Virus record (IMG/VR): IMGVR_UViG_3300045391_007423
Direction: 5' to 3' (one strand)
Origin: an uncultured virus (IMG/VR IMGVR_UViG_3300045391_007423)
Taxonomy: Duplodnaviria; Heunggongvirae; Uroviricota; Caudoviricetes
Length of the DNA stretch: 64,000 nucleotides
Shown piece after piece: positions 2,382 to 60,863 of this stretch (positions within the stretch are counted from its first letter, which is position 1; every line of letters begins with the position of its first letter). Under the pieces are notes generated by a model. The model made no database searches. It worked only from the letters and a program-made list of their open reading frames with translations, and had not been told where the DNA came from. The translations under genes and the position numbers were made by a program.

Positions 2382-3353
2382 CTACCGACGAACAAGCCGA
2401 TGCACACGTGGACGCTGTTCCCGACGATCATTGACGATTTGATCGTAGAGCTGTTTGATTGCGGCTGAATGACGAATCGTTGGCATATCATCACGCTTCT
2501 TGGTATCGATCCAGCGCGACAACCGGCTATCCTGAGCCTCAATCCGGTAGCAGCAGGACATCTGGGTACGCAGCAGGATGAGTGTCAGATCATCACTGGA
2601 AAAGTCATCAAGAAGGGTAGCATCACTGACAGGAATGGCTCTCCTGCCATAGTAGCGTACAATGAGGGTATCTCCGACATCCGTTGGGTCCCAGTCTAAA
2701 TGCAGAGCCCCATCGTAGATATCAAAGTGCCCGGTATAGAAGCGACCCCCACGTGGCGGCAGCAGTATCCCCAACTTTGGATAGCCGATATAGGAGGTTG
2801 CCGTACTCTCACCACCGCGAAATGGCATTTCTTTCAAAAAGAGTTGCAGATGTCCATCCATCGTATTGAAGCAGACCGTATTGATCTGGAAGAAGTCCGA
2901 GGGGAGCTGGTAGTCTCGCTCATTTTGCAGAAGGGGAATAGTCAAGTCTCCCCGCTCAACAGGAAAGAGCACATTTAGTTCCGTAATCGCATCCTCAATA
3001 TAGCCATTGATCTCATCATCGGGCCACGTCACCGTCGTTCCAGCATCTAAGCGGTCAGCCAGTGCCTGTCTCACCCGTTGACGGAGCCATGCGCGGCAGG
3101 AGACAGTACCGATGACAAAGGTGGCAGCCTCCGGTCCATAGGTCGCATTGGGATCAGTCCCGGCTGAGGGACGAATCTGGTACACACTTGCGGTAGTGTC
3201 ATCATAGACAATCTGAGCAGTGGTCGTGGTAGCTGTCGCGATAATAGTTGGGGTAACATCAGGATAGACGCGAAAGATCGTGTACTGGGTCGCTGGTGTG
3301 CTTCCATCAGGCCAGTTGACGGCAGGCCAGCTATAGGGTTGTGTGATTTGCAT
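2382..3353 (-). CDS. Head-tail adaptor-like protein
   Basis: LRQRVRQALAD...WPDDEINGYIEDA...DYQLPSDF pattern typical of phage adaptors; start moved to ATG 3353 with GGAG. Confidence 0.65.
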   Translation of the reverse strand: MQITQPYSWPAVNWPDGSTPATQYTIFRVYPDVTPTIIATATTTTAQIVYDDTTASVYQIRPSAGTDPNATYGPEAATFVIGTVSCRAWLRQRVRQALADRLDAGTTVTWPDDEINGYIEDAITELNVLFPVERGDLTIPLLQNERDYQLPSDFFQINTVCFNTMDGHLQLFLKEMPFRGGESTATSYIGYPKLGILLPPRGGRFYTGHFDIYDGALHLDWDPTDVGDTLIVRYYGRRAIPVSDATLLDDFSSDDLTLILLRTQMSCCYRIEAQDSRLSRWIDTKKRDDMPTIRHSAAIKQLYDQIVNDRREQRPRVHRLVRR

Positions 3354-3396
3354 AAAAGCATGCTCCAAAGGAACGAAACAGTGAGAAGAAAAAAGA

Positions 3397-4998: not shown

Positions 4999-5516
4999 AG
5001 GCGTAACCCCAGGACTTCAACATTGAGAGGACCCAACCGAGGGATACCTTCACGCCATCCCTGGAAGTCATACACGTTATTGGTCATCGGTGTAGACATC
5101 CCTCCAACTTCACCATCGTAGACAACATACTCACACTCCCCTCGCGCTTTATCTATCACCCGACCAATGATCCGATGCTGGATGGTCTTTCCCCAGGCAC
5201 CAAAGGCATCAACACGTGAGAAGGTAAACTGGAAGGCAGTTCCTGGCTCAGTAATTGGCAGGCGAGCCGTTGAGCCCAGAGGAGAAAGACGTGAAGGAGG
5301 ACAGAAGAGCCAGAGTTCTGTAATCTTGAGGACATCCCCCGTATCGACCAGATCCAAACTCCAGTCAAAGGAACGACGTGTCCCATGGCTCAGATCATCA
5401 CGGTGATCGAGCTCACAGACCCATGCGCCTGTTGAGAGTTTTGCCGCCCAGTAGGTGCGGTGAGGTAAGATCTTGCCCACCAGCGAGCCAAACACGGAAG
5501 GAAGAAGATGAGGCAT
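4995..5516 (-). CDS. Hypothetical protein (virion cluster)
   Basis: 173-aa ORF overlapping the next gene by 4 bp; RBS present. Confidence 0.6.
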   Translation of the reverse strand: MPHLLPSVFGSLVGKILPHRTYWAAKLSTGAWVCELDHRDDLSHGTRRSFDWSLDLVDTGDVLKITELWLFCPPSRLSPLGSTARLPITEPGTAFQFTFSRVDAFGAWGKTIQHRIIGRVIDKARGECEYVVYDGEVGGMSTPMTNNVYDFQGWREGIPRLGPLNVEVLGLRL

Positions 5517-5542
5517 AGTGTTCCTTTGTCTTCATGAACGCA

Positions 5543-6289
5543 CTAACTAAAGCTATAGGAGAGCGAGAGGACCGGCTGAAGCGTTCCCGTACTCATGCCA
5601 GCACCAATATAGAGCGCCAGCGTAAAGTACCAGTAGCCGGCTGTGAGCGCTTTACAGATCGCCCCGTCCTGAATGTATTGGGTGGTCGCCTGAAGTGACT
5701 GCCAGCTAGAGAGCCATGCTGCTGATGCAGTGGTAGCCGCCCCCGCTGCACCACTGGTCGCGGAAAGTGAGCTTCCAGCCGCACCAGAGAGAGGCGTTTG
5801 CTGGGTACCAGAGGTATCAACCCCAAAGCCATAGGCATTCGCCTTGAGGTACGACGTATTAGAGGTATCGCTGCTGCCATTAATCATCGGGCTTCCTGAT
5901 TGTCCACCCGGCTGAGAACCAGGACTGGCGGCAGCATGGGTGTTGTCTCCATAGGCGGTCAGAGTAAAGGCAGAGACCAATGTACCAGCGTTGTCAAAGG
6001 ACCAGCGAAAGACATTAGCCTTACTATTGGTGCCATCATAGGTAGCAACCTGCTGCCCACTGGTATCGGTCGAAAAGGCCCAGAGTTGAGGGATAGCACT
6101 CACACCAGAGGCAGGACGAGAGAGAAAGGGCCAGGTTGCTGAGGGTGTGGTGGTTGTCGCGCCACTGGTGGCCCAGCGAAGCTCATTGGCCCCACTGGTA
6201 CCACCAAAGGCGATCGCCGTTCCCGTCCAGGTTGGAGATGAATCTGTCCCGGTATTATATTGGAGGGTGAGAGATCCAAAGTCAGACAT
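5543..6289 (-). CDS. Putative virion structural protein
   Basis: G/S/T-rich beta protein in the structural operon; AAGGAG RBS. Confidence 0.65.
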   Translation of the reverse strand: MSDFGSLTLQYNTGTDSSPTWTGTAIAFGGTSGANELRWATSGATTTTPSATWPFLSRPASGVSAIPQLWAFSTDTSGQQVATYDGTNSKANVFRWSFDNAGTLVSAFTLTAYGDNTHAAASPGSQPGGQSGSPMINGSSDTSNTSYLKANAYGFGVDTSGTQQTPLSGAAGSSLSATSGAAGAATTASAAWLSSWQSLQATTQYIQDGAICKALTAGYWYFTLALYIGAGMSTGTLQPVLSLSYSFS

Positions 6290-6311
6290 AAGTGTACAGA
6301 CTCCTTCTTCG

Positions 6312-6857
6312 TTATGAAGGCAAAATAGAAAAGCTCAGGGTTGCGTTAAGGATGAGAACAGTGCTCATCTCACCATAGGAGGGAGGATGCATCACGGCCT
6401 GTCGTTGTACCCAGAATCCCGTCTCATCCGGGTAGGTAATCGTCACCACCGTATTATTGGGATCATAGTGCGCAATTAGTGCCTGCCACTCTGACCAGGA
6501 CAGGGCGGTATATTGCCAGGCAATCTGGGGAAAGCCTTGAAGCAGTGGCGCAGCCGTAAGTGTGCGACCCGCAACAGGAGGAAGAACCGGGGTCACACGA
6601 TCCGGCGCAATAATTGATCCATCTCCATTAATGGCAAAGTTGGTTACAGGGGTAATCAGATAGTAGAGCAACAGAGGCGCAACATGTGGTTTCTGGATGG
6701 TATAGGTTATGGGAAGAGGCAGCGCAAACTGAGAAGGGGCAAGAGTATAGGAGAGGGCAAGCGCATTACTGCGTGGATAGAGCAGCGTTGTCAGATCATC
6801 ACCCAGCCGCGAGATCCCCAGAATATTTTGACCAAGAGGCAATCGACTGGCACTCAT
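6312..6857 (-). CDS. Putative virion/tail protein
   Basis: 181-aa ORF in the structural operon. Confidence 0.55.
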   Translation of the reverse strand: MSASRLPLGQNILGISRLGDDLTTLLYPRSNALALSYTLAPSQFALPLPITYTIQKPHVAPLLLYYLITPVTNFAINGDGSIIAPDRVTPVLPPVAGRTLTAAPLLQGFPQIAWQYTALSWSEWQALIAHYDPNNTVVTITYPDETGFWVQRQAVMHPPSYGEMSTVLILNATLSFSILPS

Positions 6858-9879: not shown

Positions 9880-11166
9880 TTAGTAGCTATAGACCGGGGG
9901 AGTATTGACAGACGCAAGCGACTCAACCACCTCGTACGCCCAATCTCTGATGATGCCATAACCGAGCAAGCTGTACCAGCCCACGTAGCTCAAACGGCGA
10001 AGTTTATCAACTGGCAGACTCACACGGATCTCCGGGGGAACCACCAGGCCCTTACCCATGGCAGCCAGTCCACCCATCATACACATCGGATAGACATCGA
10101 TTGCGCTCGTGATGTAATCACTGGCACTATGATTGGTGATCATTGGCTGATTGAAGGTAATCGTCTTCGTCGTCGAATTGATCGTTTCGATGATCACCTC
10201 TTCAGCCGAGCCATCCTGCCCATCCGGGGCGATCCAGGTCGTTGCGGTCCCACCGATCGTAGCGGTTGTGGAGACACCCGTGTGGTGAATCGTGACTTCA
10301 TCACCAACATTAAAGCCAGTGACGTTGGCAACCACGACACTATTTGCGCCAGTCGCATAGTTAGAGCTGATTGTACTCTGGGCGGTGAGCGAACCACCAT
10401 TAGCAATACGCGCACGATCAGACTTAATAAAGCGCACACCATGGATCATGCCTTCTTCACCATTGAAGATCCGCGTAGCACCCGCGTACAACTGCGCGTC
10501 CTTCCAATAGGGATCAGCTCGCAAGTCATAGGTCACAGAGGGATGTGTGATACAGATGTAGGATGGCTGCTGTGTCCCCATGGTTGGCACACGTCGTACT
10601 GTCAGATTATAGGCCGAACGACGAGCGACCTCAGAGGTCATCAGGCTCACAGAGGGATTAAGCGCTGCGCGGTTAGCAACACCACCCACATAGGTATGGA
10701 AGGCTGGTCCTGACAGCGAGGAGTTCATTAGAGAACGGTTCGGGGCATACCAGAGCATATTGCGTGCCAGGGTATCCATCGTGAGCGCCTGCTGAGGGGC
10801 AAGCAACGTACGTACGATATTAGAGATTGGACCATGGTAGGAGAGTAAGTCCAGCAGTTCCGATGTACCAATTGCGGAACCGTATTCCTGCACTTTAAAG
10901 CTCACCTGATGGTCAGTAACACTCCCACCTTCCACATCCTGATTCTCCGAGAGTGGAGTAAGCGCTGGCGCAAGCTGGTGGTAGATCGTCCAGATAACCT
11001 GCTCGCCACGTTTGGCGGCAAAGTCATTACGCTCTTCAACGAAGGCTGGCTGATCATAGACCAGCGTTGGACGAGACGTAAATTCAAGTTCATTGGAATA
11101 AATCACACGCATCGCGTCAGGCAATGCGTTGGTAGTGATCAAGTCGGAGTAAATAGATCCGGCCAT
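9880..11166 (-). CDS. Major capsid protein, N4-gp56-like HK97 fold, with inserted beta domain
   Basis: YICITHPSVTYDLRADPYW...YAG..RIFNGEEGMIHGVRF and D.L.R...VGWY motifs; follows scaffold. Confidence 0.9.
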   Translation of the reverse strand: MAGSIYSDLITTNALPDAMRVIYSNELEFTSRPTLVYDQPAFVEERNDFAAKRGEQVIWTIYHQLAPALTPLSENQDVEGGSVTDHQVSFKVQEYGSAIGTSELLDLLSYHGPISNIVRTLLAPQQALTMDTLARNMLWYAPNRSLMNSSLSGPAFHTYVGGVANRAALNPSVSLMTSEVARRSAYNLTVRRVPTMGTQQPSYICITHPSVTYDLRADPYWKDAQLYAGATRIFNGEEGMIHGVRFIKSDRARIANGGSLTAQSTISSNYATGANSVVVANVTGFNVGDEVTIHHTGVSTTATIGGTATTWIAPDGQDGSAEEVIIETINSTTKTITFNQPMITNHSASDYITSAIDVYPMCMMGGLAAMGKGLVVPPEIRVSLPVDKLRRLSYVGWYSLLGYGIIRDWAYEVVESLASVNTPPVYSY

Positions 11167-11230
11167 AGAATGTGTACCTCATAGAGGGGAGGGGGACGAC
11201 ATACCTGCCAATCAGGAGGAGCTGATGAAC

Positions 11231-11270
11231 AGAAATGTTGCGAACCAGGAGGGTTATTCGCAACATTTCT
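11231..11270. repeat. 40-bp palindromic site, copy 1
   Basis: AGAAATGTTGCGA-N14-TCGCAACATTTCT. Confidence 0.9.
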
Positions 11271-14806: not shown

Positions 14807-16507
14807 TTAGATAGAATTTGAGAGATTGACATTATCAACCGACTCCAGATCAGGGCTCTGGATCAGTGTACCGGGTTTGCCAGCAGACGCGCCAATTCCA
14901 CCCGGAAGATCAGCACTCCCACCCACACCAGTATCACTATTTTTGCCAGCCGTTCCACCCTCTGCTGGTGGCGTTGTCCCACCCATCTGAGCCTTCATCA
15001 TCATATCCTGCTGAATGCGTCGTACTTCAGTAAGGACATCATCCTCACCCAGCTTTTCCAGTGCTCGTTCCAGGCTCCGCAAGCCATTGGCATAGAGCGC
15101 GACTGCTTCATTGACTTCCTGTAACTCATCCTTTGGCAGGATCTCTGCAAAGACTGGCTCAATCTTGTACATGAGCACCCGGCGATAGTCGAGGCCCTGA
15201 CTCTCTAAGAGTGCCTGGTCCCGAACATAGAGCATATAGAAGATCATCTTTGCCAGATCCGTGAGTCCCTTGGCCCAACGAATCCTTTTCTCTCGAGAAC
15301 GCTCAACCACTGGCATCATCGTTAGCGCAATCGCGATACCAGAATTATGAGAGGAACCACCTCGATGCGTTCCAAAGGCTGATTCTGGCATCGAGGAGGT
15401 CTCATACATGGTGGTCTTGACTTCATGAACATATTCCATCGTCTCAGGGGCAGGTCCAGTTCCCTCCAGTCGATTCGCCTCACCATCTCGGCCCAGATCC
15501 CAGATCGCATCCGGCCCGACTGGGAGATCCATGGTATTGCCCGAAAAGTTCTTGAGCGTCACAATTGCATGGCTATGCATATTGACGGAATCACCCATAT
15601 CGGCAAGCCGTCGATTGATCTCATCCTGGAGCTGCATCATATTCTCGCCATCTGAGTAGCCAAAGTATTCAGCGCCAGCCTGCATGTTGGGGATATGAAT
15701 AAAGGGGATAATGCCAGGATAGATATTGCCCTGCTCATCACGTGGCATATACGGGTTTGGCTGATTGATGACATTACAGTCATCGACCCAGATCTGGGTC
15801 GAGGTGGTAGCCCAGCGTTTCCAGAGCACACCGATCCCTGGAAGATACTGTGGATTGACCGCCTGATAGCCTAGAAATTGATCATTGCCACTGGTACCAT
15901 ATTGCTCAAGGGCCAGGACACGATCAATCGGATAGGCAATGATGACCTCATTGAGCTTCTGCATATTGGAGATATCCCACATCGCATGGAAATATTCTGG
16001 CAGCACATTCTCAATCACAATGCGACGCTCAACCTCATCAAAGCGTACTTCTAGCATACTATCGCCATAAAGACAGCCATTCTTCGATGCTTGCCAGAAG
16101 GTAACATTCCCTGAATTCTCATCATAGATACGGTCCAGAAAGCGTTTAATCTTGCGCCCATAGGCTACGGCTTCATCAACCTCTGCTGGTGTCATTTCCT
16201 CTTTACCAATAGGTGTGACGCGCCAGGAGAAGAGTCGTTCCTTCCACTGACCCCAGAGATAGGAGGTGTGCTTATCGGTAATCTGCTTGAAGTAGTTGAC
16301 CAGGAGAGGCTGATCAACATTGTCAGGAGGCAGCTCCTGGTTGCTGTAGTAGTTATAGAGACGAATGTAACGCTGGGCTCGCACTTCACCCAGCCTGCGG
16401 CGCATGAGCGCTTCAAAGTGGAGGATACGCCCCAATGCCAGGGAACGCGAGATCCCATGTTGCTGTCCATCTGGCCCTGGGCGTGTGGTGACTTTTATCG
16501 TATTCAT
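14807..16507 (-). CDS. Portal protein (SPP1 gp6-like)
   Basis: NYFKQITDKHTSYL, LYGD, G.IPFIHIPN..GYSD, SG.AI motifs; follows TerL. Confidence 0.9.
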   Translation of the reverse strand: MNTIKVTTRPGPDGQQHGISRSLALGRILHFEALMRRRLGEVRAQRYIRLYNYYSNQELPPDNVDQPLLVNYFKQITDKHTSYLWGQWKERLFSWRVTPIGKEEMTPAEVDEAVAYGRKIKRFLDRIYDENSGNVTFWQASKNGCLYGDSMLEVRFDEVERRIVIENVLPEYFHAMWDISNMQKLNEVIIAYPIDRVLALEQYGTSGNDQFLGYQAVNPQYLPGIGVLWKRWATTSTQIWVDDCNVINQPNPYMPRDEQGNIYPGIIPFIHIPNMQAGAEYFGYSDGENMMQLQDEINRRLADMGDSVNMHSHAIVTLKNFSGNTMDLPVGPDAIWDLGRDGEANRLEGTGPAPETMEYVHEVKTTMYETSSMPESAFGTHRGGSSHNSGIAIALTMMPVVERSREKRIRWAKGLTDLAKMIFYMLYVRDQALLESQGLDYRRVLMYKIEPVFAEILPKDELQEVNEAVALYANGLRSLERALEKLGEDDVLTEVRRIQQDMMMKAQMGGTTPPAEGGTAGKNSDTGVGGSADLPGGIGASAGKPGTLIQSPDLESVDNVNLSNSI

Positions 16508-16563: not shown

Positions 16564-18174
16564 TTAGCGGTGACGAGTGCCCCCAAGCTGTTGCTGTCGG
16601 GCCTGCCGTCGATGCACACGTGATTCGATATAGCGAGCGTTGAGACGGGCCTGGGGATGACGAATAGAGTAGTGAGGCATCGCATTGAGCTTCTGTTGCA
16701 GACTCTCTGACTGCGGAGACATACGTGTCATATCACGAGCGGCATAACACATCTGGCAGTAGGCCATCACAATATCCTGGGCAATATCCTTGTCATAGAT
16801 GGTGTAATTGCTCAACTGATCAACCGTCCTTTTGATGAACGGGAAGACGGTCAACCCACGTTCAATGCAGAGCTTACCCGCATGCAGCAGGTTCGGCTTC
16901 TTTTCACCAGAATAGACAATACCTTCCAGATCATCGATCGTCTGCTCTTTGAGCATAAACTCCTCTAACACATCACCCTTACCTGTTGAGTCAATGACGG
17001 TCTTACAGGTGGAACCTGCATAGTCAGAGGAATACTTGGCATGCCATTCTTCGATCTTGGCTTTGGCCTCAACATAGCCCATACCTTCCCTATATAAGAA
17101 GGCGACCTGTATCCAGGGTTCATGGGTAATGTCGTAGACTAAACCAACACAGGCATTGCGACCCTTCTGTGTCGATTTCTTCCCCAGATCCCAACTGGCA
17201 ACATAGCGATGTCCAGCCTGGGGATCACATTCGTAATGCAGAATATCTTCCGTAAGACCAGCATCAGTGCGAATAGATTTGGTATCATGGGTCTCATTCC
17301 ACTCATTGATGCGTTCGTAGAGCCATTTGACCTCGCGCCGTCCCTCTGAACAACAGGCCATAATCGCATGATAGGGGAAAAATGCGTCAGAATTGTCCAG
17401 AAATTCTCCGAAGAGTTCCTGTCGAATCATGGCTTCGGTGTAATCAGCCATAACATCATTGATGGCTTCCTGGTCCAGAAGAGGATTATCCCAGATGGTA
17501 GCCCTGAGACTCAGATATTTGTCTGGTCGCGCCCCACGATAGGCCGGATCACCCTTCTTCCAGCGTTCCGCCAGCCAACCCTGACCCTTTGGAGAAGAGA
17601 TCATCCATAGAATGCCCATGCGGTGTTGATGGGTAATCGGATTAATACCCAACAGACGCCCTCGTAGTGTCTTGATAGCCGTCTCACGCGTCACATAGGC
17701 TGCTTCATCCACTGAGATAAGATCGAACTCGAAGCCACGAATCAACTCGGCATCATAGCCAATAGAGCGAAACCACAACTCAGAGCCATTGACCAGTCGG
17801 ATCAGCGGATAGGGAGAGGATTGGACATGCTCAATCCAGTGGGAGAAGCGGGGCGCATTACAGAGTTGCAGACAGGCTTGATAAACGATCTTGGCTTGCT
17901 CACTGGAGATGGAGGTATTGAGGAAACGCGAGCCTGGATTGAACTGCATCATATGCATAGCACCACGAGCGGCAAAGTGAGACTTGCCCGTACGAATACC
18001 GGCAATCAGCAGTTTGTCTTTTTGTGGGGCATGGTAGAAGTAGCGCTGGAAGGGAAAGAGGGTTTCATCGAAGTAGCCCTGAGCCCAGAGATCGATATCG
18101 TAGCGAGCATAGGTCAGGATCTCTTTATCCAGAGCGGTAAGGGTAAACTGACTCGCTTTTTCAAATTTTTTCAT
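16564..18174 (-). CDS. terL: Terminase large subunit
   Basis: Walker A AGIRTGKS, Walker B ISVDEAA, coupling motif SSPKG, nuclease WDLG...D.VMA. Confidence 0.95.
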   Translation of the reverse strand: MKKFEKASQFTLTALDKEILTYARYDIDLWAQGYFDETLFPFQRYFYHAPQKDKLLIAGIRTGKSHFAARGAMHMMQFNPGSRFLNTSISSEQAKIVYQACLQLCNAPRFSHWIEHVQSSPYPLIRLVNGSELWFRSIGYDAELIRGFEFDLISVDEAAYVTRETAIKTLRGRLLGINPITHQHRMGILWMISSPKGQGWLAERWKKGDPAYRGARPDKYLSLRATIWDNPLLDQEAINDVMADYTEAMIRQELFGEFLDNSDAFFPYHAIMACCSEGRREVKWLYERINEWNETHDTKSIRTDAGLTEDILHYECDPQAGHRYVASWDLGKKSTQKGRNACVGLVYDITHEPWIQVAFLYREGMGYVEAKAKIEEWHAKYSSDYAGSTCKTVIDSTGKGDVLEEFMLKEQTIDDLEGIVYSGEKKPNLLHAGKLCIERGLTVFPFIKRTVDQLSNYTIYDKDIAQDIVMAYCQMCYAARDMTRMSPQSESLQQKLNAMPHYSIRHPQARLNARYIESRVHRRQARQQQLGGTRHR

Positions 18175-18266
18175 AGATGCATGGAGGGAAGAGGAGATAG
18201 GGGAGAAACATGATAGGAGGAAAGAAAGGGGAAAGGAGATCACTGACGATCTCCTTTCCTCCAGGG

Positions 18267-21681: not shown

Positions 21682-21685
21682 CACG

Positions 21686-21730
21686 GAGGCAGGATCGCTC
21701 TCACACGAGAGTGGTTCTGCCTCTTTTTGT
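21686..21730 (+). terminator. Intrinsic terminator
   Basis: GAGGCAG...CTGCCTC plus T tract. Confidence 0.7.
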
Positions 21731-21823
21731 GTGTGCATCAGGAATGGGAAGGACGACGACACGCACCTATGTGCATGAGTAGACGCTGTGTCTATCCGTA
21801 CGAATACATCTTCGGAGGAATAC

Positions 21824-22054
21824 ATGTACAAATATCGCACACCACACACCCAACAGACCGTTCGTGATTGGAACGATGAGGAGATGATCGAGATCTTTGG
21901 TCGCCAACCACGCCCAGATCATGCCTATCGTCTTCGTGATACCCACGAGCGTGCGCAAAAACACTATAATTCTCGCGGTATCAAAATCACCCAACAACGC
22001 AAAGCTGCCCGTCGTCTCAAATACGCTCCAGTTCCTGGCGAGCTGGACGATTAA
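21824..22054 (+). CDS. Small basic hypothetical protein
   Basis: GGAGG RBS; flanked by leader motif and terminator. Confidence 0.65.
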   Translation: MYKYRTPHTQQTVRDWNDEEMIEIFGRQPRPDHAYRLRDTHERAQKHYNSRGIKITQQRKAARRLKYAPVPGELDD

Positions 22055-22060
22055 TACAGG

Positions 22061-22106
22061 CCCTGGTTCTCTCACACCCAAGAGAGGATCAGGGTTTTTT
22101 GTTGTG
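22061..22106 (+). terminator. Terminator, identical 46-bp copy at 23291-23336
   Basis: CCCTGGTTCTCTC...GAGAGGATCAGGG-TTTTTT direct repeat. Confidence 0.85.
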
Positions 22107-22211
22107 CCTTATTGGGAATAAGGGAAGGACGAGAAACACTGAAGAAAAGTGATCAGTCACTTGGTACTGATTCTCCACCCTATAACGAACATATCGGAGG
22201 TTACACGCACA

Positions 22212-22928
22212 ATGGATCATACCGTATTCTCAGCACTCTCTACCTATACCATTACCAAACAATCTCGGAGATATCCCGATGTTCTACGAACGCAGGCATA
22301 CGCACCTGCCGAGTGGTATTGCTGGGGTAATCCAGTACTGCTCAACGCACCACGACGCAAACGTATTGCTGTCATTGGCACACGGCAGGCAACTGAAGAG
22401 GGTATGCGGCAAGCGTATAGAACCGCACGACTCTTCGCTGAATGGGGCGCAACCATTGTTCATGGCCTGGCTCTGGGCATTGATACTGCTGCTGCCCAGG
22501 GCTGCGTTGATAGTACGGGATCAACGATAGCAGTGCTCAATAACCCTCCACAAACCTACGATGATATCTATCCACCCGAGAATCGTGGGCTGGCTGCAAA
22601 GATCATCGATGCTGGTGGTACACTCGTTACAGCATATCAGCAACGTGTCTACGAGCGAGAGTTGCTCATTCGTCGTATGATTGAGCGTGATGCCCATCAA
22701 GCGATGCTCTCGGATGCTATTATTGCTGTCCAGGGCGATCGTAATAGTGGTACACGCCATGCGATAAACTGGGCACTGGTCCATAACATTCCAGTCTTTG
22801 TTCCACAACCTGATCATGATGATCATCGTGAACATCCCAATAGTTATCGATTAGTTGATGATCTGGTCAACAGTGGTCGAGCTCAGATGATCACACCCAA
22901 CCAGTATAAATCTATCCTTGCTCTATAA
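22212..22928 (+). CDS. dprA: DprA/Smf-family (SLOG fold) protein
   Basis: IAVIGTR, GLALGIDTAA, YPPEN, SGT motifs. Confidence 0.85.
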   Translation: MDHTVFSALSTYTITKQSRRYPDVLRTQAYAPAEWYCWGNPVLLNAPRRKRIAVIGTRQATEEGMRQAYRTARLFAEWGATIVHGLALGIDTAAAQGCVDSTGSTIAVLNNPPQTYDDIYPPENRGLAAKIIDAGGTLVTAYQQRVYERELLIRRMIERDAHQAMLSDAIIAVQGDRNSGTRHAINWALVHNIPVFVPQPDHDDHREHPNSYRLVDDLVNSGRAQMITPNQYKSILAL

Positions 22929-23082
22929 CTCTTCGGCATGGTTCCTCTCGCTTGAGGGGGATCATGCCTATTTTTGTGTGTACATATCGTTCGGTAGAAA
23001 GAGAAGGACGACGAGCCGCCAGAAGGAGGTGTACCAGACGATTGGTTCTGGTCAATTCACCTACCTACAAAGGAGCACACTC

Positions 23083-23283
23083 GTGGATATCCTTATTCTT
23101 TCTCTCTTTATCATTGGTCTCATTATTATCATCATTGGCCTGTATCTCACGATCCGAATGCGGAATCGTCTTATTGAGAATCTCCTGGATGAGGCACTTG
23201 ATGATACGATTGTAGAAGAATGCGTGGATTATGAGATCTACACACCGATCAGCTTTGACCTTGATCCAGTGACATTCAACTAA
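23083..23283 (+). CDS. Small single-TM protein with acidic tail
   Basis: AGGAG plus GTG start; N-terminal TM. Confidence 0.6.
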   Translation: MDILILSLFIIGLIIIIIGLYLTIRMRNRLIENLLDEALDDTIVEECVDYEIYTPISFDLDPVTFN

Positions 23284-23290
23284 CTACTTC

Positions 23291-23336
23291 CCCTGGTTCT
23301 CTCACACCCAAGAGAGGATCAGGGTTTTTTGTTGTG
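23291..23336 (+). terminator. Terminator, copy 2 of the 46-bp repeat
   Basis: Identical to 22061-22106. Confidence 0.85.
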
Positions 23337-23455
23337 TCCTTTACGCTCGATCCAAAGAGAAGGACGACGACACGCGGAGTGTGCATGTACCTACAGTTGG
23401 TACAGATAAAAACGCTGGTTCATTTATGCCAGCCACACAAGAAAGGGGCCACACA

Positions 23456-24337
23456 ATGGCTAACATCTCCACCACCAACGCAACAATCGTTACCGAAGAA
23501 AACATTGAGGAAAAAGTAGTCGATGCACTGGACACACAAGTTGAGATCCAGCAATTGGCTACACCTGTAGTCAATCCTCACCTTGTGTCAACAAAAGCGC
23601 ACAATGTTACGCTTCGCAAAGGCAAGGATCAAGATAGAAGATTCTTTGCAATCGGCGATGAGTCAATCGCCAGTGGGAGATTGGTTCATATTATCCTTAC
23701 AAAGAAATACGAATCCTTTGGTGAGCTTCGTACCCAGAGGGCCTGTGCCTGGTTAGAGACAGAGGGCTATACTTTACTCTCAGGCGGCCTACGTAAGGAA
23801 GATCTGATTGCCATCAACGAGTTTCTCAAGATGGGTGGCAAAGTAGTAATTGTCTTACCTCAAGGATTCGGGACAATCCGACGTGAGGTTTGGAATGAAT
23901 TGAAGGAGTATATCGAAGCGGGACAAATGCTCCTGCTCTCGCGCTTCCAGTGGAGAGAGAACTGGTCGATGGAGCGAGCCAAAGAGCGCAATTTGCATAT
24001 GGCATGGCTAGCTGATGCAGTTGTCGTATCTCAGTGCGTTTCTAGCCAGAGTGCAGAGACACATACCTGGGGCGGCGGCGGAGTGAGTATGATTGAGGCA
24101 GCACTGGCGTATCAGAAGCCTGTCTTCCTGCCCTCATTAATCAAGGCCGACCAGGAAGTCCATCAGTTTATTGCAAAAGCCCAGGGAGTGACAATGCTCC
24201 CAGCAGTGGCATCGATCGATGAGACATTCCAGCCCCTGAAGGAGACCGTCCCACCACCAGTTGAAGAGCCTGTATGGGGAGAAAAGGAACAGGCAGAAGC
24301 AGAGCGACGGCTCGATGGATACAACACCGAAGAGTAA
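23456..24337 (+). CDS. Divergent DprA/Smf-like (SLOG) protein
   Basis: LLSGGL, GGKVVIVLPQG, LLLSRF...W....A.ERN...LADAVVV pattern. Confidence 0.7.
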   Translation: MANISTTNATIVTEENIEEKVVDALDTQVEIQQLATPVVNPHLVSTKAHNVTLRKGKDQDRRFFAIGDESIASGRLVHIILTKKYESFGELRTQRACAWLETEGYTLLSGGLRKEDLIAINEFLKMGGKVVIVLPQGFGTIRREVWNELKEYIEAGQMLLLSRFQWRENWSMERAKERNLHMAWLADAVVVSQCVSSQSAETHTWGGGGVSMIEAALAYQKPVFLPSLIKADQEVHQFIAKAQGVTMLPAVASIDETFQPLKETVPPPVEEPVWGEKEQAEAERRLDGYNTEE

Positions 24338-24408
24338 TCCCTAAATATGAGAGGTGTTCTCCCCACAAAGGAGGATGCCTCTTGTTTCAAACAAAGAGGA
24401 GGAAGATC

Positions 24409-24600
24409 ATGATCACTTACACTATAAGACTAAGCAGCGAATTTACCGATGAAAACGGACAGCCTCTCGTGGAAATCTGGCCTCCGTTGCCACGAAAACC
24501 ACGACCACAGCGACCGCCAGCACCATGGCGAAAACCACGACCACAGCGACCGCCAGCACCATGGCGAAAACCACGACCACAGCGACCACCACGAGCATAA
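24409..24600 (+). CDS. 63-aa Pro/Arg-rich peptide, 3x RKPRPQRPP
   Basis: GAGGAGG RBS; flanked by a 36-bp direct repeat. Confidence 0.65.
   Translation: MITYTIRLSSEFTDENGQPLVEIWPPLPRKPRPQRPPAPWRKPRPQRPPAPWRKPRPQRPPRA
24493..24591 (+). repeat. 36-bp tandem repeat, about 2.8 copies
   Basis: CGAAAACCACGACCACAGCGACCGCCAGCACCATGG units at 24493, 24529, 24565. Confidence 0.95.
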
Positions 24601-24792
24601 CCACATGAGAGGTGTTCTCCCCACAAAGGAGGATACCTCTCTTTTTTGTGTGTAACTGGCCCACGAAACACACCCAACACCCAAAGAGAAGGACGACGGC
24701 ACGCCGAGAGAACACGACCAGGCACGTGCACACACACCCAAACACGCACACCTGGATCTCTCGCACGTACGCACGTACAGGAGGGCCAGCAT

Positions 24793-28853: not shown

Positions 28854-28868
28854 TTCTTCGTTTGTCGT

Positions 28869-28908
28869 AGAAATGTTGCGAACCCCCTTGCTCTCTCGCA
28901 ACATTTCT
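28869..28908. repeat. 40-bp palindromic site, copy 2
   Basis: AGAAATGTTGCGA-ACCCCCTTGCTCTC-TCGCAACATTTCT. Confidence 0.9.
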
Positions 28909-38486: not shown

Positions 38487-38570
38487 CAGCCTTTCCTTCA
38501 GTGTTTCTTCACAAAGAGAACGAGATTGTCATATACGACAGTCTCGTTTTTTTGTGCTCAGTACGACACT

Positions 38571-38610
38571 AAAAATGTTGCGAACTCCCTCAGCTTGTCG
38601 CAACATTTCT
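38571..38610. repeat. 40-bp palindromic site, copy 3
   Basis: AAAAATGTTGCGA-ACTCCCTCAGCTTG-TCGCAACATTTCT. Confidence 0.9.
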
Positions 38611-38806
38611 GTCCGAAGAGTGTTAGCTAACGCCAGAGCTTCGCACCACCACGCACACAACAAAAAAGCGCGTCCAGAAGAACAAAGGGTTCGGGGGAAA
38701 AGAGAAGGACGACGGGCCGCCAGAAGGAGGTGTACCAGACACAAAGGGTGTTTGGGCAAAAAATAAAAAAGAGCTGCACACCAAAGCAGCAAGAAAGGGT
38801 CCAATA

Positions 38807-40162
38807 ATGTCTAACATCTCCACCACCAACAACCTGTCTATTGTCGCAAACATCCCGGCAAAAAGCGAGACAAATTATCGTTCAAAAATTACTTCTTTCA
38901 ACTATGACACAGAGTTAGAAAAAGCTGCCGAAAATGATCTGTCGGCAATCATCCAGATTGGAAAATTTGTCCGAGAGAAGCTACTCCAGGCCACGCAGCG
39001 AGCGCAGAAGGCTGATCAGAAACTTCGGATCAATCGTTCTCGCCGCCAGAACGACCCGAATGTCAGCAAATTACGGAATATTAATCAAATTTATGCTAAT
39101 CTTCGCAATGACCTCATAGAGGTCTACGATCTGGCAAAAGATGGCAACGATGTCTCTCAACATCAAGTCTGGGAACGCCTTACAAATCATCATATTACCG
39201 GAAAAGATGTCCAGTACATGGGACCGATCTCGGCCCTAGATCTGGCACTGCTCACAGAATCATCCATCACTTACAGCAATCCCTACATTGTCAGAGGGAT
39301 GTCAGATCCTCAAATGCAGCATCTCAATTGGGGAACACTGATTCCAGTTGAGGAAGGCTTCCTGTTGACCGTCAACAAACAGGAGATCCTGCTGGAGGGT
39401 GAGATGGCTCACCAGATCTTGATCTCCGCACGCCTGACAGAGAACACGCCCTGGAATGGGGAATGCGTTATTCCGTCAAAGAGCCTGTCCCGTTTTAACG
39501 GATACTCATTGATCATTCCACCGTTGGCGAGATATACCAACACAGAGACAGGCGAGGTGATCGAAAGCCCAAACGTGATGCTGGATCTGCAAGGAAATGA
39601 TTATCCCATTACAGAGGACATGCGTATATCGATGTCCAGTATCACGTATGATGCTCTGGTCGCATCCCTGGCCTTTGCCAGATACGGCAATGCGGATTAT
39701 GAACAGGAGTCCAATCTGCTCATAACATGCTTTGGTGAGGCTCGTGCGCCAAAGCATGCCTGTGATGTCCAGTATTACTTCACCCGATCCTGGTTTGATC
39801 GGGTCGCAGCGAACAACCGGGATTATTACTTCGGTGAAGGCCGAACGCTGAACGGTCTCTCAGAAAAGAAGATTGCAAACTATGAACTCTATTGTCAAGC
39901 CTGGCCTACCTATCAAGCGCTTATCGCGGCTCGACAAGAAGCAGCTCGACTGGCACGTGAAGAGCGCTTTGCTCACGTAGAACAGAGTCGGCAGTCACAG
40001 GAACAGCTTCAGGACACAATAAAGAAAGTAGAAATAGAACAGCGGAAAATTGCTGAGAAGAATGGGTTAGCCATTCCAGTGCCCACAACGGATCGGGGGC
40101 AGACAATCGATGAGGAGTTCGAGTATCTCGCCGAACTAGACGGCCTGGACGGTCTCGCTTAG
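38807..40162 (+). CDS. Hypothetical protein (451 aa)
   Basis: Long ORF; leader motif; coiled-coil ends. Confidence 0.75.
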   Translation: MSNISTTNNLSIVANIPAKSETNYRSKITSFNYDTELEKAAENDLSAIIQIGKFVREKLLQATQRAQKADQKLRINRSRRQNDPNVSKLRNINQIYANLRNDLIEVYDLAKDGNDVSQHQVWERLTNHHITGKDVQYMGPISALDLALLTESSITYSNPYIVRGMSDPQMQHLNWGTLIPVEEGFLLTVNKQEILLEGEMAHQILISARLTENTPWNGECVIPSKSLSRFNGYSLIIPPLARYTNTETGEVIESPNVMLDLQGNDYPITEDMRISMSSITYDALVASLAFARYGNADYEQESNLLITCFGEARAPKHACDVQYYFTRSWFDRVAANNRDYYFGEGRTLNGLSEKKIANYELYCQAWPTYQALIAARQEAARLAREERFAHVEQSRQSQEQLQDTIKKVEIEQRKIAEKNGLAIPVPTTDRGQTIDEEFEYLAELDGLDGLA

Positions 40163-40615
40163 CACAGACAGGAGAGGGGAGAGATGACAACATCTTTCTT
40201 CTCTCTGTTTTTGTGTGTATCTTTTCATACTTTCATCACTGCTGATGAGAACATTCATCACTTTTGATGATGCAAAAGATGCATTGGTATGGTATGCTAG
40301 AGGAGGAGATGCGGAACAGTCATACCAGTAAGGTATGGAAGTTATTCTCTTGTTTGATCAGATGTTCTAGGAGATATCTCCTACATCCGTAAAAAAATAT
40401 GGGAGACTTCTCTGATGTGTTCCGTCAGTAGACCCGTTATACTCTTCTTGTGCTCAGGAAGTTCTTCTTCTCTCCCTTTACCTCCGTAGAAAAGAACAGA
40501 AGAAAAGGGACGGTCACAACAACCGCCCGGAAGAAAGAGAAGGACGACGACACGCCAGGAAGAAGCGTTATCGTTAGTCAAAAAAAAGTAAAAACAGTGA
40601 AAGAAAGGACCAATC

Positions 40616-40984
40616 ATGAAGATTATCAACTTTTCCCATCCTTTAAACAGTGAAGAGATTCAAAAATTGATCGGCGTTCAGGATACTGAAGTGATTACGG
40701 TGCCAGTAGTAATTCGACCTATCAGTGAGATTCCATTGGCAGAGCAAATCAGAGGTATCGTCGATGCAGTGGGCTTTACCGCCGAGCAGTGGCAGACAAC
40801 ACCATTTCTGATCAATATACCTGGCTTTGGCAGCGCAACCGCAGGTGTGCTTGCAGAAATCCATGGTCGTACAGGTCATTTCCCAACAATGCTTATTCTG
40901 GAGCGCCAGGATGGTGCCTTTAAGATCGCTGGGACTCAGGACCTCCAGAGCATTCGCGAGCAGGCTCGTAGCCGCCGCTTCTAA
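40616..40984 (+). CDS. csx15: Csx15-like protein (type III CRISPR ring-nuclease / cOA-binding family)
   Basis: INFSHPL...EQ....D...T.EQWQT.P.LIN.PG...LAEIHGRTGHFP...LQ.IR..AR.RR matches the Csx15 motif series as recalled. Confidence 0.85.
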   Translation: MKIINFSHPLNSEEIQKLIGVQDTEVITVPVVIRPISEIPLAEQIRGIVDAVGFTAEQWQTTPFLINIPGFGSATAGVLAEIHGRTGHFPTMLILERQDGAFKIAGTQDLQSIREQARSRRF

Positions 40985-41082
40985 TTAATTCGTATAGTTA
41001 TTCGCCTCCTGCTCTGCTCTTTCTATGAGAGTATCAGGAGGCTCGTTCCATGAAATTGTTTAAAAGAAAGAAGGAAAGTACC

Positions 41083-41454
41083 ATGAATAACAAAAATATT
41101 GAGTTCCGTTTTATTAACTGGAGTAACATATACATCCTTTGCAAGGATCTGCCTGCTGTAGAAGCGCTCCTTCAGCAAGCAGCGTGGACGGCTATGCCCA
41201 CTACGATCAACGATGTTGTTACGCTGGTGGCACCGAAAACGAGCCCATATGTGGCGACAGATAACTACGATGTAATACGGGCGTTTGCCCCGTACGTCAT
41301 CATTCCAGGGGGGCACCTCATCCTAGAGAGAACTGATACGACCTCCTACCAGAAGGACTGGCTTCACATTGTCTTCTCTGGGAAGAGCGACTTCTGGGAA
41401 GAGATCACGCCTGCCGGACAGTGGCAATGCCAGCAGATTCGAGGCGTATTATAA
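41083..41454 (+). CDS. Hypothetical cassette protein
   Basis: AAGGA RBS; lies between repeats. Confidence 0.6.
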   Translation: MNNKNIEFRFINWSNIYILCKDLPAVEALLQQAAWTAMPTTINDVVTLVAPKTSPYVATDNYDVIRAFAPYVIIPGGHLILERTDTTSYQKDWLHIVFSGKSDFWEEITPAGQWQCQQIRGVL

Positions 41455-41559
41455 TTTTTTATTGCGAGTGTTTCTAACTCTTAGTTGTTATTCGCCTCCT
41501 GCTCTGCTCTGCCTTACCCACGAGAGTATCAGGAGGCTTACTGGAAAGGAACATAAAAG

Positions 41560-41775
41560 GTGTTTTGTTTTTACTGCCACGAAAAAGTGACTGAGTGCCG
41601 TTGTCCCAACGAAGGAAAACGTGCCGTCGCAACCTGGGAGGAGGCAACGGGATTTTGGATGGTGGGATATGGACTGAGAGAGACCACTCCCGATAACTTC
41701 TATGCGAGTGATGTATGTGCTAATTGTGGAAATTTTAGTGGATATGGGGTAATGTTTTGCGGTCAGTGTGATTAA
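41560..41775 (+). CDS. Small Cys-rich Zn-finger-like protein
   Basis: CFYC..C.C, CANC, CGQC; GTG start. Confidence 0.6.
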   Translation: MFCFYCHEKVTECRCPNEGKRAVATWEEATGFWMVGYGLRETTPDNFYASDVCANCGNFSGYGVMFCGQCD

Positions 41776-41842
41776 AGTTATTTGCCTCCTACTCTGCTCT
41801 TTTCATGAGAGTATCAGGAGGCTCGTTTGAAAGGGCAAAATA

Positions 41843-42058
41843 ATGGATCAGTTACATATCGTTATCCTTGATGTTCAGGATACCAACAATGGGCTTGAGC
41901 ACTATGCCACCGTTGTTTTAACGAAACGTGCGTCTTCACCCAAAGATGCCTTACAGCAAGCCATTGATGGTTTTGCAAATTACGGCGGCAATCTTTCCTT
42001 TGATGACTCCGTAGCATATCTGCTAGAGCCAGAGCCAAAAGAATATTATCGCGATTAG
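41843..42058 (+). CDS. Small acidic cassette protein
   Basis: 71 aa between repeats. Confidence 0.6.
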   Translation: MDQLHIVILDVQDTNNGLEHYATVVLTKRASSPKDALQQAIDGFANYGGNLSFDDSVAYLLEPEPKEYYRD

Positions 42059-42119
42059 TTGATTATCTGCCTCCTGATGCACGCAGAGCAGGAGGATTGT
42101 TCCATGAAAGGGTAAGAAT

Positions 42120-42335
42120 ATGAAATATATTGTCATATTGATTGTAAATAAATCTTCTGGATATAGATACGGTATCTTTGTTCGGATAGAAACAGCAGAT
42201 AGCCCGGAGGCAGCAATCAAGAATGCTGTAAGTCATTACGATTTTGAAGATGACTTCAGTGTCAATGCTGAAGCCCATCAAATAACGAATGATAAATCAT
42301 CGGAGTTATTTTCCGATATTCAAGATTTTGGCTAA
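42120..42335 (+). CDS. Small cassette protein
   Basis: 71 aa; A.SP..A...A pattern shared with 41843-42058. Confidence 0.6.
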   Translation: MKYIVILIVNKSSGYRYGIFVRIETADSPEAAIKNAVSHYDFEDDFSVNAEAHQITNDKSSELFSDIQDFG

Positions 42336-42392
42336 TTAGAGTGATTCTAAAATCGAGCGCAACTGACATCTTGCCCGGAGACAATAAAGGAG

Positions 42393-43289: not shown

Positions 43290-43474
43290 ATTCTGAAATA
43301 CATTCAGCCAGGCACCTATGTTGGTGTGGTAGACGAAGATTATAACCAGTTCAGGTTGGTCGCCAGAAACGGCGAAATTGACCGTATCTATCCCACGTGG
43401 GACATGTAAATAAGTTCATCGGGCGGGACTGACCATCTTGCCCTGAGATACATCAGAAGAAAAGGAAAAGAACG

Positions 43475-44566: not shown

Positions 44567-44578
44567 ATGAGTTCATTT

Positions 44579-44618
44579 AAAAAACGCTGGTTCCTTTGCG
44601 GTTCCAGCGTTTTTTTTG
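44579..44618. terminator. Intrinsic terminator
   Basis: AAAAAACGCTGG...CCAGCGTTTTTTTT. Confidence 0.8.
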
Positions 44619-44647
44619 TGTATTGCAACCTGGCACATAAATAAGTA

Positions 44648-52034: not shown

Positions 52035-53171
52035 ATGGATCTTCCACCAGAAGAGAAAGAGATGCTCAACCTCTTTGCAGGCCCAGGAGGCACTGAAGTT
52101 GGGCTTAACTATGCTGGCTGGTATTCAACTGATGCCGTCGAGTATGATGCAGCCGCCTGTAAAACCCTGAAGAAAGCCTTTGCCCCTCGCATGAAGGTTC
52201 ACGAAGGCGATATTCGTCTTATCCCGGTTGCCAACTATCGACGACGGTACTACCGATTAGCTGTTTATACCAATCCCTGCGATCACTATAGCTCTTTCGC
52301 CAATGTCCATGGCAAGCAGACCGGGGATGATTTGTATCTCCATGCGCTCCGCAATCACGTCTTGCTCTGGCCGGAGGTGGTGCTGATCGAAAACGTCGTT
52401 GGCATGCGCAAATTTGAGCCAGTGATGGAATTGTGGCGCAATATCGCCCACTACTACACCACAGAACTGACCGTCTGGGGTCATGATTTCACCATGCAGC
52501 GTAAGACTCGCGTGTTTCTAATCCTGCACCGACAGCCCTTTGATTTCCCCATGCTCAAGGAGATCCATACATTCGTCAATGAGCATAGGGATGAGATCCC
52601 CTTTCAATCGGTCCTGGCCCGGCCTGGTCGTATCCTACGTGATTATCTGGATGCACCAGAGGAAAAAGTGATCGATGTGCAGCCATATATTGAGACTCGC
52701 CTTGATGGAGAATATCGCGATCGCCCAATCATCTATTCCCCGGACCAGGCTGATCCCATTAATCTGATGACCAACTATAAGCGTGATCGAAGCAATTTCC
52801 TGGTGGAAGATGCTGACTCTCCGATTGGTAGTCGGCCCTTCTCCGTCAACGAGATTGCACGTCTGCATGGTTTTCCTGTGGATGCCAATAACCGTGTCAT
52901 CCACCAGTTTTGTGGTAATAAGAACCAGCGCTACGGGCAAGTGGTAGACACGGTGATGCCGATCGTGGCCTATGCGCTGGGAACCGCAATCAATGCCTAT
53001 TTTGAGGCAATTCCAGCGCTGGCTCCACAACCTAAGCCAAAGGGGTATCGCTTCATCAAGAGTCCCTCACCTCAACGGAGGAAAGTAGATGAAGCATCGG
53101 AAATGACCAATGTTCCTGACCATAGAGCAACTCCACTACCAAAAGATGTACAACAATTGGCATTGATGTAA
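52035..53171 (+). CDS. Orphan DNA (cytosine-5) methyltransferase
   Basis: LFAGPGG, PC catalytic motif, ENV, Q.K.R, ARLHGFP. Confidence 0.9.
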   Translation: MDLPPEEKEMLNLFAGPGGTEVGLNYAGWYSTDAVEYDAAACKTLKKAFAPRMKVHEGDIRLIPVANYRRRYYRLAVYTNPCDHYSSFANVHGKQTGDDLYLHALRNHVLLWPEVVLIENVVGMRKFEPVMELWRNIAHYYTTELTVWGHDFTMQRKTRVFLILHRQPFDFPMLKEIHTFVNEHRDEIPFQSVLARPGRILRDYLDAPEEKVIDVQPYIETRLDGEYRDRPIIYSPDQADPINLMTNYKRDRSNFLVEDADSPIGSRPFSVNEIARLHGFPVDANNRVIHQFCGNKNQRYGQVVDTVMPIVAYALGTAINAYFEAIPALAPQPKPKGYRFIKSPSPQRRKVDEASEMTNVPDHRATPLPKDVQQLALM

Positions 53172-53558: not shown

Positions 53559-53663
53559 TACGTTCCTGTCCGGTGCCCGCTGCTGAGCGACACTTTCAAC
53601 CAGGAGAAGAGGATAGACCTGGCTTCCACCTCTCTCCTGGTTTTTCTTTGGGGAAGCTTTTCT

Positions 53664-53703
53664 TAATATGTTGCGAACCCCCTTGGCTCGTCGCAACATT
53701 TCT
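53664..53703. repeat. 40-bp palindromic site, copy 4
   Basis: TAATATGTTGCGA-ACCCCCTTGGCTCG-TCGCAACATTTCT. Confidence 0.85.
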
Positions 53704-59412: not shown

Positions 59413-60516
59413 CTACATCGCCATTTCAGATCGGACATCTTCCAGGAGCATGTATGCCTGGGTCGCATACCCTTCCGCATTCTTCCACTCAGGCTGTTTG
59501 GGAACTATAAAATGGGGAAGAATTGTATGAAGCGTTTCCTGAAAGAAGTAGGGGCCACCACCATCTACATTTACTTCATCGAACGTGGTCGCGGCAAGAC
59601 CACTATCGCTATCCTTCCAGGATTTGACAATAAACTCATTAATATCGTTGCCTACCAATGTTTGCGCTTGACGTGCCCACTGGCGAATTTTATTTATGGG
59701 GATCGCCTCTCCGTTGACTGTAATCTTAGGGAAGCTTCTATTATCATAGGCCAGAGCCATTAGAATAGCATCACGCTGATATGGCGAGAGAACCATATCC
59801 GTTTGATACTCACGTTGTACCCAATCCTGAACTTGATCGACAATTTTTTCGACCCCCACTTTGTCGGTGCCAACACACCAACGAGCAATCACATTATCAG
59901 GACCAACGACATAGAGATCAACTGTTCGGCTGCCGATGTCAATAGTTCCCTGGGTATTCAGACCCTCTCTGGCAGTGATAATGGTGGCTCCAGCCCCCTC
60001 CTGAAGAACATCAACCTGAGTAATCGCCCGGAAGTATTTTTGTCCATTAAAGGTGAACTCAAAATCGCGGATCAGATTTTTCTTTACCTTATCTATAGCA
60101 CCCCGCGTCCGATATGTCTGAGCTGGCAGACCAGTACAAATGTAGAGTTCCAATTCTTCGTCATCAGGGGCAAGAAGAACAGAGGATGTCAGGATCAGTT
60201 CAATTGAGCGATCAGACCAGTAGCGACCAGGAACCCCAAAACCACTACTTGCATCCTGGGGAGCCTGCCTTACTGCTAACTCACCAACAAAGTGTTCAAC
60301 ACCATTTTGTATGTGAATGGCATATTCGTTCGATTTGAGTCGCTCACTGATCGGTTTTTTCTTGCCATCGCGAGCCTCCTGCTGCAAGATGTATTCGTCT
60401 AATGATCCAGGGACAGTCAGACTGGGGAAGGAGACTCGTTCAAACTTCCCATTAACGAAACTGACTGCCTTTACTCTTCGACTCCCTGTGTCTACTCCAA
60501 TAGTCTTCTTTTTCAT
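59413..60516 (-). CDS. parM: ParM/StbA actin-like partition ATPase
   Basis: GVDTGSRRVK, TGLP, QEGAG, IDIGSRTVD, GGG, NAEGY actin-fold motifs. Confidence 0.9.
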   Translation of the reverse strand: MKKKTIGVDTGSRRVKAVSFVNGKFERVSFPSLTVPGSLDEYILQQEARDGKKKPISERLKSNEYAIHIQNGVEHFVGELAVRQAPQDASSGFGVPGRYWSDRSIELILTSSVLLAPDDEELELYICTGLPAQTYRTRGAIDKVKKNLIRDFEFTFNGQKYFRAITQVDVLQEGAGATIITAREGLNTQGTIDIGSRTVDLYVVGPDNVIARWCVGTDKVGVEKIVDQVQDWVQREYQTDMVLSPYQRDAILMALAYDNRSFPKITVNGEAIPINKIRQWARQAQTLVGNDINEFIVKSWKDSDSGLAATTFDEVNVDGGGPYFFQETLHTILPHFIVPKQPEWKNAEGYATQAYMLLEDVRSEMAM

Positions 60517-60639: not shown

Positions 60640-60652
60640 TCCTGTTTGCATT

Positions 60653-60863
60653 GTGCTCGTCGCTAGATGTTATGTAGCTGTGAGCTAGCTGTTACCTGAA
60701 CGGAAAAATAGGGAATGTCTTTGCTGTGCTCGTCGCTAGATGTGAGCTAGCGACGAGCTAGAGCGGAAAATCAAGATGCAACAGCTTTTGGTAACAGCTA
60801 GATGTGAGCTAGCGACGAGCACTAAAAATGTTGCGAACTGATGATAGATTTGCGTCATTTTTA
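60653..60863. repeat. Direct/inverted repeat cluster, parC (centromere) candidate
   Basis: GCTCGTCGCTAG / CTAGCGACGAGC units four times, plus a degenerate fifth 40-bp site at 60824. Confidence 0.65.

Follow-up and report, generated by a model that had tools for sequence, protein, structure and literature searches.

The window (the whole stretch of 64,000 nucleotides analysed here) is part of an 82,442-bp contig, about 18 kb of which lies outside it. It derives from a tailed phage, with genes for the major head protein (9880-11166), portal (14807-16507) and terminase (16564-18243). Within a + strand run of early-type genes, bounded on either side by a U-tailed hairpin, csx15 is followed by an array in which four copies of a hairpin-bearing spacer alternate with four small open reading frames (ORF1 to ORF4); two longer genes complete the predicted operon (Table 1).

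Table 1 Features of the predicted csx15 operon and its boundaries
Feature	Position	Strand	Remarks
U-tailed terminator-like hairpin	40162..40216	+	Ends the 451-aa gene upstream; the operon's 5' boundary
Leader motif copy, AAGGACGA core	40534..40549	+	67 nt 5' of csx15; 1 of 11 genome-wide, all +
csx15, 122 aa, candidate viral ring nuclease	40616..40984	+	S7, H8, H83, R114, R118, R121
Spacer copy 1	40997..41055	+	GTTATT flank, bulged stem 41004-41042, 3' flank
ORF1, 123 aa, orphan	41083..41454	+	Alternative start at 41050 gives 134 aa
Spacer copy 2	41487..41550	+	Stem 41494-41537, different 12-nt loop, then GAAAGG ribosome site
ORF2, 71 aa, Cys-rich	41560..41775	+	Weak double zinc ribbon match below cut-off
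Spacer copy 3	41777..41835	+	Stem 41784-41822, then GAAAGG ribosome site
ORF3, 71 aa, orphan	41843..42058	+	Predicted beta-beta-alpha-beta fold
Spacer copy 4	42059..42111	+	Flanks and outer arms forward, interior inverted; short stem 42069-42095
ORF4, 71 aa, 35% G+C	42120..42335	+	Predicted topology as in ORF3
Two longer genes, 298 and 363 aa	42393..44566	+	One common domain; second, different leader repeat; same predicted operon
U-tailed terminator-like hairpin	44574..44620	+	3' boundary of the predicted operon

The gene directly ahead of the array had been named csx15 in the original prediction, and profile searches confirmed the name: its product matches NF040560 (E = 3e-31, 108 bits against a cut-off of 35) and the PADLOC Csx15 profile (E = 2.6e-25). 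The residues listed in Table 1 were placed by alignment, with H8, R114, R118 and R121 spaced as H8, R118, R122 and R125 of HaCsx15, and the residues reported for Csx15 binding and cleavage are those kept here (PMC13148439; bioRxiv 10.64898/2026.10.26.761840). Csx15 is reported to be absent from phage genomes in PMC13148439, and bioRxiv 10.64898/2026.10.26.761840 describes over 20 viral Csx15 proteins, for which it proposes the name AcrIII-3 and an activity that is itself only proposed. Like those proteins, the window's gene is a stand-alone phage csx15 that retains the His of the head and the three Arg of the tail. It is a new member of this already proposed class and may figure among the viral sequences of that report. 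An anti-defence role is credible for Csx15 itself. The gene has a hairpin on its 3' side only and is not enclosed by the repeat; on its 5' side lies the AAGGACGA motif, for which we infer a promoter-like role.

Four copies of one intergenic element had been predicted, and copies 1-3 match the first consensus exactly, whereas copy 4 does not. The 16-mer of the right arm is present three times; among 50 versions of the window shuffled with dinucleotides preserved, none held any 16-mer in triplicate. Conservation extends beyond the unit first described, from a GTTATT flank shortly behind the stop codon to a GAAAGG-type ribosome site; units measure 53-62 nt, with near-identity over 45-60 bp. RNA folding and alignment of copies 1-3 reproduced the expected bulged stem and variable loop, resolving a lower stem of 8 bp, or 7 bp in copy 3, followed by a 3x1 internal loop and an upper stem of 6-7 bp. 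As isolated RNA, these copies have folding z-scores of -4.8, -3.1 and -3.4, and with wider flanks of -2.4, -1.9 and -1.8. All four copies do lie between a stop codon and the next small ORF, with stems that begin 19, 39, 8 and 10 nt past a stop and end 40, 22, 20 and 24 nt ahead of a start (copies 1-4, respectively). The lack of a U tract also held: 3-4 of the 8 nt past the stem are T, compared to 6-7 in six of seven terminator-like hairpins (and 5 in the seventh, whose stem end was placed too early), and a terminator scan called the spacers on neither strand.

Copies 1 and 2 share 24 + 17 identical nucleotides and have loops unlike in both length and sequence. Identical arms around a replaced loop agree better with selection for the stem than with a simple, recent duplication. 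Folded as RNA, the mRNA strand is more stable than its complement by 5.3, 2.1 and 3.4 kcal/mol (copies 1-3); folded as DNA, the two strands are equal. This bias is smaller than that of three of the four terminators compared (6.2-11.8 kcal/mol), goes back to a single ancestral sequence and is not seen in copy 4. Compensatory changes were found at none of 14 stem pairs, and copy 3 breaks one pair. The copies have no promoter-like site in common (12 in the region against 14.3 expected) and no common upstream mini-ORF. Two further proposals were rejected. Translational coupling through a hidden AGGAGG is feasible for copy 1 alone, where this word lies in the 3' arm, 7-8 nt ahead of the ATG at 41050; in copies 2-4 the ribosome site falls outside the stem (unpaired probability 0.24, 0.72 and 0.71). 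Descent from the terminator family at 22061 and 23291 looked likely by eye, but the score of 31 fell within the null range of 28-35.

Many CRISPR repeats begin with GTT and end near GAAAG, as the spacer units do, which counts for an account in which the spacers are repeat decoys (Racr or solitary repeat units) that host Cas6 would cut and that would jam a type III complex alongside Csx15. The spacers also adjoin a gene that is a candidate inhibitor of type III systems. Racr candidates are often near acr genes, according to a study in which a candidate must match a known CRISPR repeat at 90% or more (PMC10651486). Rfam searches returned no spacer match at the gathering level and, up to E = 10, only chance-level eukaryotic matches, among them no CRISPR repeat family; an exact copy was likewise lacking from the GTDB genome set. 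The units exceed the usual repeat length, and GAAAGG is the ribosome site of this phage. We consider decoys very unlikely.

The predicted lengths of the small ORFs (123, 71, 71 and 71 aa) were confirmed, with ORF1 appearing in the public set in its 134-aa form. They had also been put forward as strong anti-defence candidates; their position by csx15 stands, but none has a PADLOC, PHROG, Pfam or NCBIfam match above cut-off, and an anti-defence role for ORF1-4 is a guess from position. Homology searches returned only the protein itself for ORF1, no homologue for ORF2, and for ORF3 itself plus three weak matches in long repetitive proteins; ORF4, examined by families, Atlas and fold only, had no family match. 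G+C content falls from 0.50 through 0.46 and 0.44 to 0.35 along the array. ORF3 and ORF4 share a predicted topology, which is generic, and several top fold matches. Their structures were predicted without an alignment (pLDDT 69 and 66), and the best fold matches (Z = 6.5 and 5.0) are under the level that would mean more than a common arrangement. T7 Gp2, T4 Dmd and AcrIF9 were also matched, at Z = 3.8-4.2, which is not evidence of function.

The array could instead be the relic of a gene accordion, in which a leader and its gene were duplicated in tandem, the genes then diverged or were replaced, and the hairpin is at most a weak terminator lacking a U tract, without any special role. The spacing of successive copies (290 and 285 nt), the three ORFs of 71 aa and the shared topology of ORF3 and ORF4 agree with this scenario, as do further pairs of tandem paralogues in the window, one of which has a common leader of its own. 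It is countered by the ORFs themselves, as ORF1, ORF2 and ORF3 show no mutual similarity despite lying behind spacers that are 85-91% identical, and ORF3 and ORF4 give no BLASTP alignment. The replacement of a loop between conserved arms also speaks against it, and we consider tandem duplication on balance unlikely.

The two longer genes at the end of the operon share a 77-aa domain at 38% identity and a second leader, at 42361-42380 and 43426-43447. Pfam and PDB searches returned nothing for the domain, which by eye resembles a degenerate MazG-like helical domain.

Copy 4 retains the outer arms and the forward flanks, but the 12 nt of its interior correspond to the inner arms in reverse complement (identity of 6/6 and 3/4 when inverted, 2/6 and 1/4 when direct). 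It folds no better than shuffled sequence (z = -0.36), with a stem of 7 bp. A covariance model, as the original prediction had advised, was built from copies 1-3; it retrieved copy 4 on each of the two strands, at E = 0.0009 and E = 0.003, and no further site in the window below E = 0.6. The match at that value, at 40338-40362 upstream of csx15, looks like the spacer flanks joined without a hairpin and may be due to chance; its 8-mer occurs at chance level (5 seen, 3.3 expected).

Outside the window, a strict spacer pattern had no match in viral contigs and four in metagenome contigs, one being a copy 100% identical to the window (L004) and the others single matches in unrelated G+C-rich DNA. 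A loose pattern gave seven single matches in viral contigs, which have no protein in common with the window, and INPHARED phages gave only one 29-nt match (E = 0.1). Applied to 24 fetched loci, the covariance model recovered just three pattern-selected matches and one at E = 0.97. We found no relative of the phage in GTDB genomes. Two phages are related by capsid protein, G004 (137 kb, 91% complete, 67-68% identity) and G002; both lack csx15 and homologues of the array ORFs, and self-comparison of G004 revealed no such hairpin array. Two other records, G003 and G001, are the same genome as the window and stop short of the array. No relative carrying the array was found in which gene order could be compared, as the original prediction had proposed; L004 is the only other copy of the region.

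To place the layout among other csx15 genes, we used two scans that yielded 10 other distinct viral csx15 loci after merging of duplicates (L042/L032, L044/L043 and L048/L047). Self-comparison covered 13 loci, including the window, and the count is limited to csx15 loci. A further Csx15, P0002, is encoded on a 26-kb Logan contig and has 55% identity to the protein of the window. One clear analogue emerged, in a phage (G005, locus L032) that has only csx15 in common with the window. At the head of its early genes, five copies of a hairpin of another sequence, with 9-bp arms and a 6-10-nt loop, lie within 2 kb (L032 3629-5673, equivalent to G005 4532-6576). Four of the five closely precede a start codon, and the array extends on both sides of csx15. 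In one copy the interior is inverted although the flanks are forward (7/10 inverted against 3/10 direct, by hand count). No PF00589 match was found in G005, which is 85% complete. Among the remaining loci, L034 is marginal, with 3-4 copies of a short hairpin-RBS repeat, L045 has an operator-like palindrome, L047 has terminator-like repeats and L033 has one 73-bp duplication; nothing comparable to the hairpin array was seen in L031, L043, L046, L049 and L050. With one clear case in 10, the hairpin layout recurs, yet it is not a rule for csx15. The duplication in L033, a provirus, is a direct repeat (3309-3381 and 4363-4435) flanking a repeat-protein gene directly behind csx15, which looks as if it had been inserted as a cassette.

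The spacers had been proposed as attC- or REP-like sites for a dedicated recombinase, and this part of the proposal was not supported. In attC sites, the R'' (RYYYAAC) and R' (GTTRRRY) boxes close the stem, with AAC where the spacers have GTT at the 5' flank, and REP elements served by TnpA-REP carry a GTAG or GGAG tetranucleotide at the hairpin foot. None of the four spacers holds either R box, and GTAG and GGAG words occur only inside the arms, none at a hairpin foot. The single orientation expected of attC sites is broken by copy 4, whose core is inverted. REP elements are also dispersed in many copies with an HUH transposase nearby, whereas the spacers number four and the window has no HUH family or motif. 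An integron-type tyrosine recombinase or HUH transposase, which the original prediction had proposed to seek, was not found among the 80 window ORFs by Pfam, and six-frame translation of the window (leaving about 18 kb of contig outside) contained no hallmark motif of either. Integrons and CALINs, as described in PMC4889954, likewise hold small, unrelated, promoterless ORFs and similar bulged palindromes with a variable apex, but the spacers lack an R-box pair and IntI, and their arms are conserved in sequence.

A broader DNA-level explanation would make the spacers small palindromic elements of recombination or insertion, lying in either orientation in a conserved target and shuffled in an integron-like manner by a dedicated enzyme from the host or from the part of the phage outside the window. 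Arms kept by sequence rather than covariation suggest such a site, as do the inverted interiors between forward flanks in copy 4 and in the G005 copy, the hairpin-less look-alike at 40338-40362 and the unequal G+C content of the ORFs. Small inversions between hairpin arms are, however, a known spontaneous event, and the look-alike, or 'empty site', has the chance-level statistics given above. Together with the missing attC and REP hallmarks, the missing recombinase in the window, the lack of PF00589 in G005 and G004, flanks without target duplication and the confinement of the element to 1.1 kb, these points make a dedicated DNA site quite improbable.

Intergenic modules are reused elsewhere in this genome: an identical 46-nt terminator occurs at 22061 and 23291, and a 52-nt leader at 22989 and 38689. 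Several other repeats were observed. Two genes without detected protein similarity, near 23457 and 38807, share a ribosome site and first codons (23438-23479 and 38790-38830), a sign of leader transplantation. The AAGGACGA(CG) motif occurs 11 times, always on the + strand (21338, 21749, 22125, 23004, 23360, 24689, 26112, 37481, 38705, 40540 and 51961) and mostly ahead of early-type genes, and is a candidate phage-specific promoter or leader; in G004, 12 copies of another 13-mer occur instead (reverse complement TAAGGAAAAGTCG). Four copies of a long inverted repeat, whose loop varies and whose strand bias is slight, were also seen (11229-11270, 28867-28908, 38569-38610 and 53662-53703). One lies just upstream of the major capsid gene, where G004 has a counterpart of different sequence (52793-52838 and others), and the repeat is possibly a DNA operator. 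Long, G-U-rich, terminator-like hairpins, including two exact or near-exact duplicate pairs, cluster at 21685-24641 around two DprA-like genes (22149-22928 and 23381-24337). Finally, short nested direct and inverted repeats at 60645-60822, upstream of an actin-like partition gene (59413-60516), are likely a centromere-type site, which suggests a plasmid-like prophage state.

In the RNase III-processed early operons of T7 and SPO1, small early genes of a single transcript are separated by bulged stems that do not act as terminators; the spacer stems are shorter (about 15 bp, and 7 bp in copy 4). In cluster K mycobacteriophages, SAS/ESAS is reportedly a conserved repeat tied to the translation starts of small non-structural genes, from which the spacers differ in forming a stem-loop with a variable loop and a tight local cluster. 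The closest described system is the promoter-early stem-loop (PeSL) of T4-type phages, which shares the order of stop codon, stem-loop, SD and start codon between orphan ORFs in a variable early region (PMC2839356). PeSLs are reported to attenuate transcription, to recombine and to supply homology for gene exchange (PMC2839356; PMC4122927). They carry a sigma-70 promoter within the module and are spread over several regions, whereas the spacers have no promoter, occupy 1.1 kb with four copies and have a stem with an internal loop. As the promoter is lacking, the spacer would work like a PeSL by inference, yet it is not a PeSL.

We favor, with a rough probability of 0.55, the reading that the spacers are copies of a stop-hairpin-RBS module that acts at the mRNA level and, being nearly identical, supply crossover points as well. 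The module (stop codon, GTTATT flank, G+C-rich stem-loop and ribosome site) would punctuate a single early transcript running from csx15 to the 44574 terminator. The stem would form in the mRNA and be mostly read through by the polymerase, serving as an internal stabilizing, processing or weakly attenuating element and thereby setting the dose of the individual small genes. Crossovers could then occur in register within the 45-60 bp of near-identity. Ordinary homologous recombination would in this way add, remove or duplicate whole RBS-ORF-stop units, as shown for T4 PeSLs, and no dedicated recombinase would be needed. Copy 4 would be an older copy in which the interior has turned over between the palindromic arms. 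Both an RNA-level function and cassette exchange by homologous recombination are plausible.

This reading is supported by the fixed position of the spacers relative to stop and start codons, by the better folding of the mRNA strand as RNA while the DNA strands are equal (a modest bias) and by the reuse of intergenic modules on unrelated genes. PeSLs show the same stop-stem-SD layout with attenuation and recombination (PMC2839356), and the same layout appears in G005, an unrelated csx15 phage with no PF00589 match. It is weakened by the absence of compensatory changes and the broken pair in copy 3, by a strand bias that is modest, of single ancestral origin and missing in copy 4, by the lack of a promoter in the module, unlike PeSLs, and by the failure to find a relative in which the gene order differs. 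A flipped interior would also be easier to explain if the DNA palindrome alone mattered; the recurring flipped copy, here and in G005, is the one unexplained detail.

A bolder possibility is that unrelated phages independently built compact, promoterless, csx15-headed arrays of anti-defence cassettes, in which short, sequence-specific and orientation-independent hairpins would be recombined at a fixed point by an enzyme other than IntI or TnpA. Such arrays would be a phage counterpart of the integron and their orphan cassettes new inhibitors, a long shot that we rate as very unlikely. If the flipped copies do mark a dedicated recombination site, for which the evidence is thin, they would point to a phage cassette system without a known enzyme.

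If instead the spacers are elements of RNA control and crossover, they would carry the PeSL concept over to an unrelated group of phages, in a form without a promoter, and variable early-gene clusters could be found from repeats alone. The operon itself offers an intact Csx15 as a test case for the proposed AcrIII-3 class, together with four orphan genes for an anti-defence screen.
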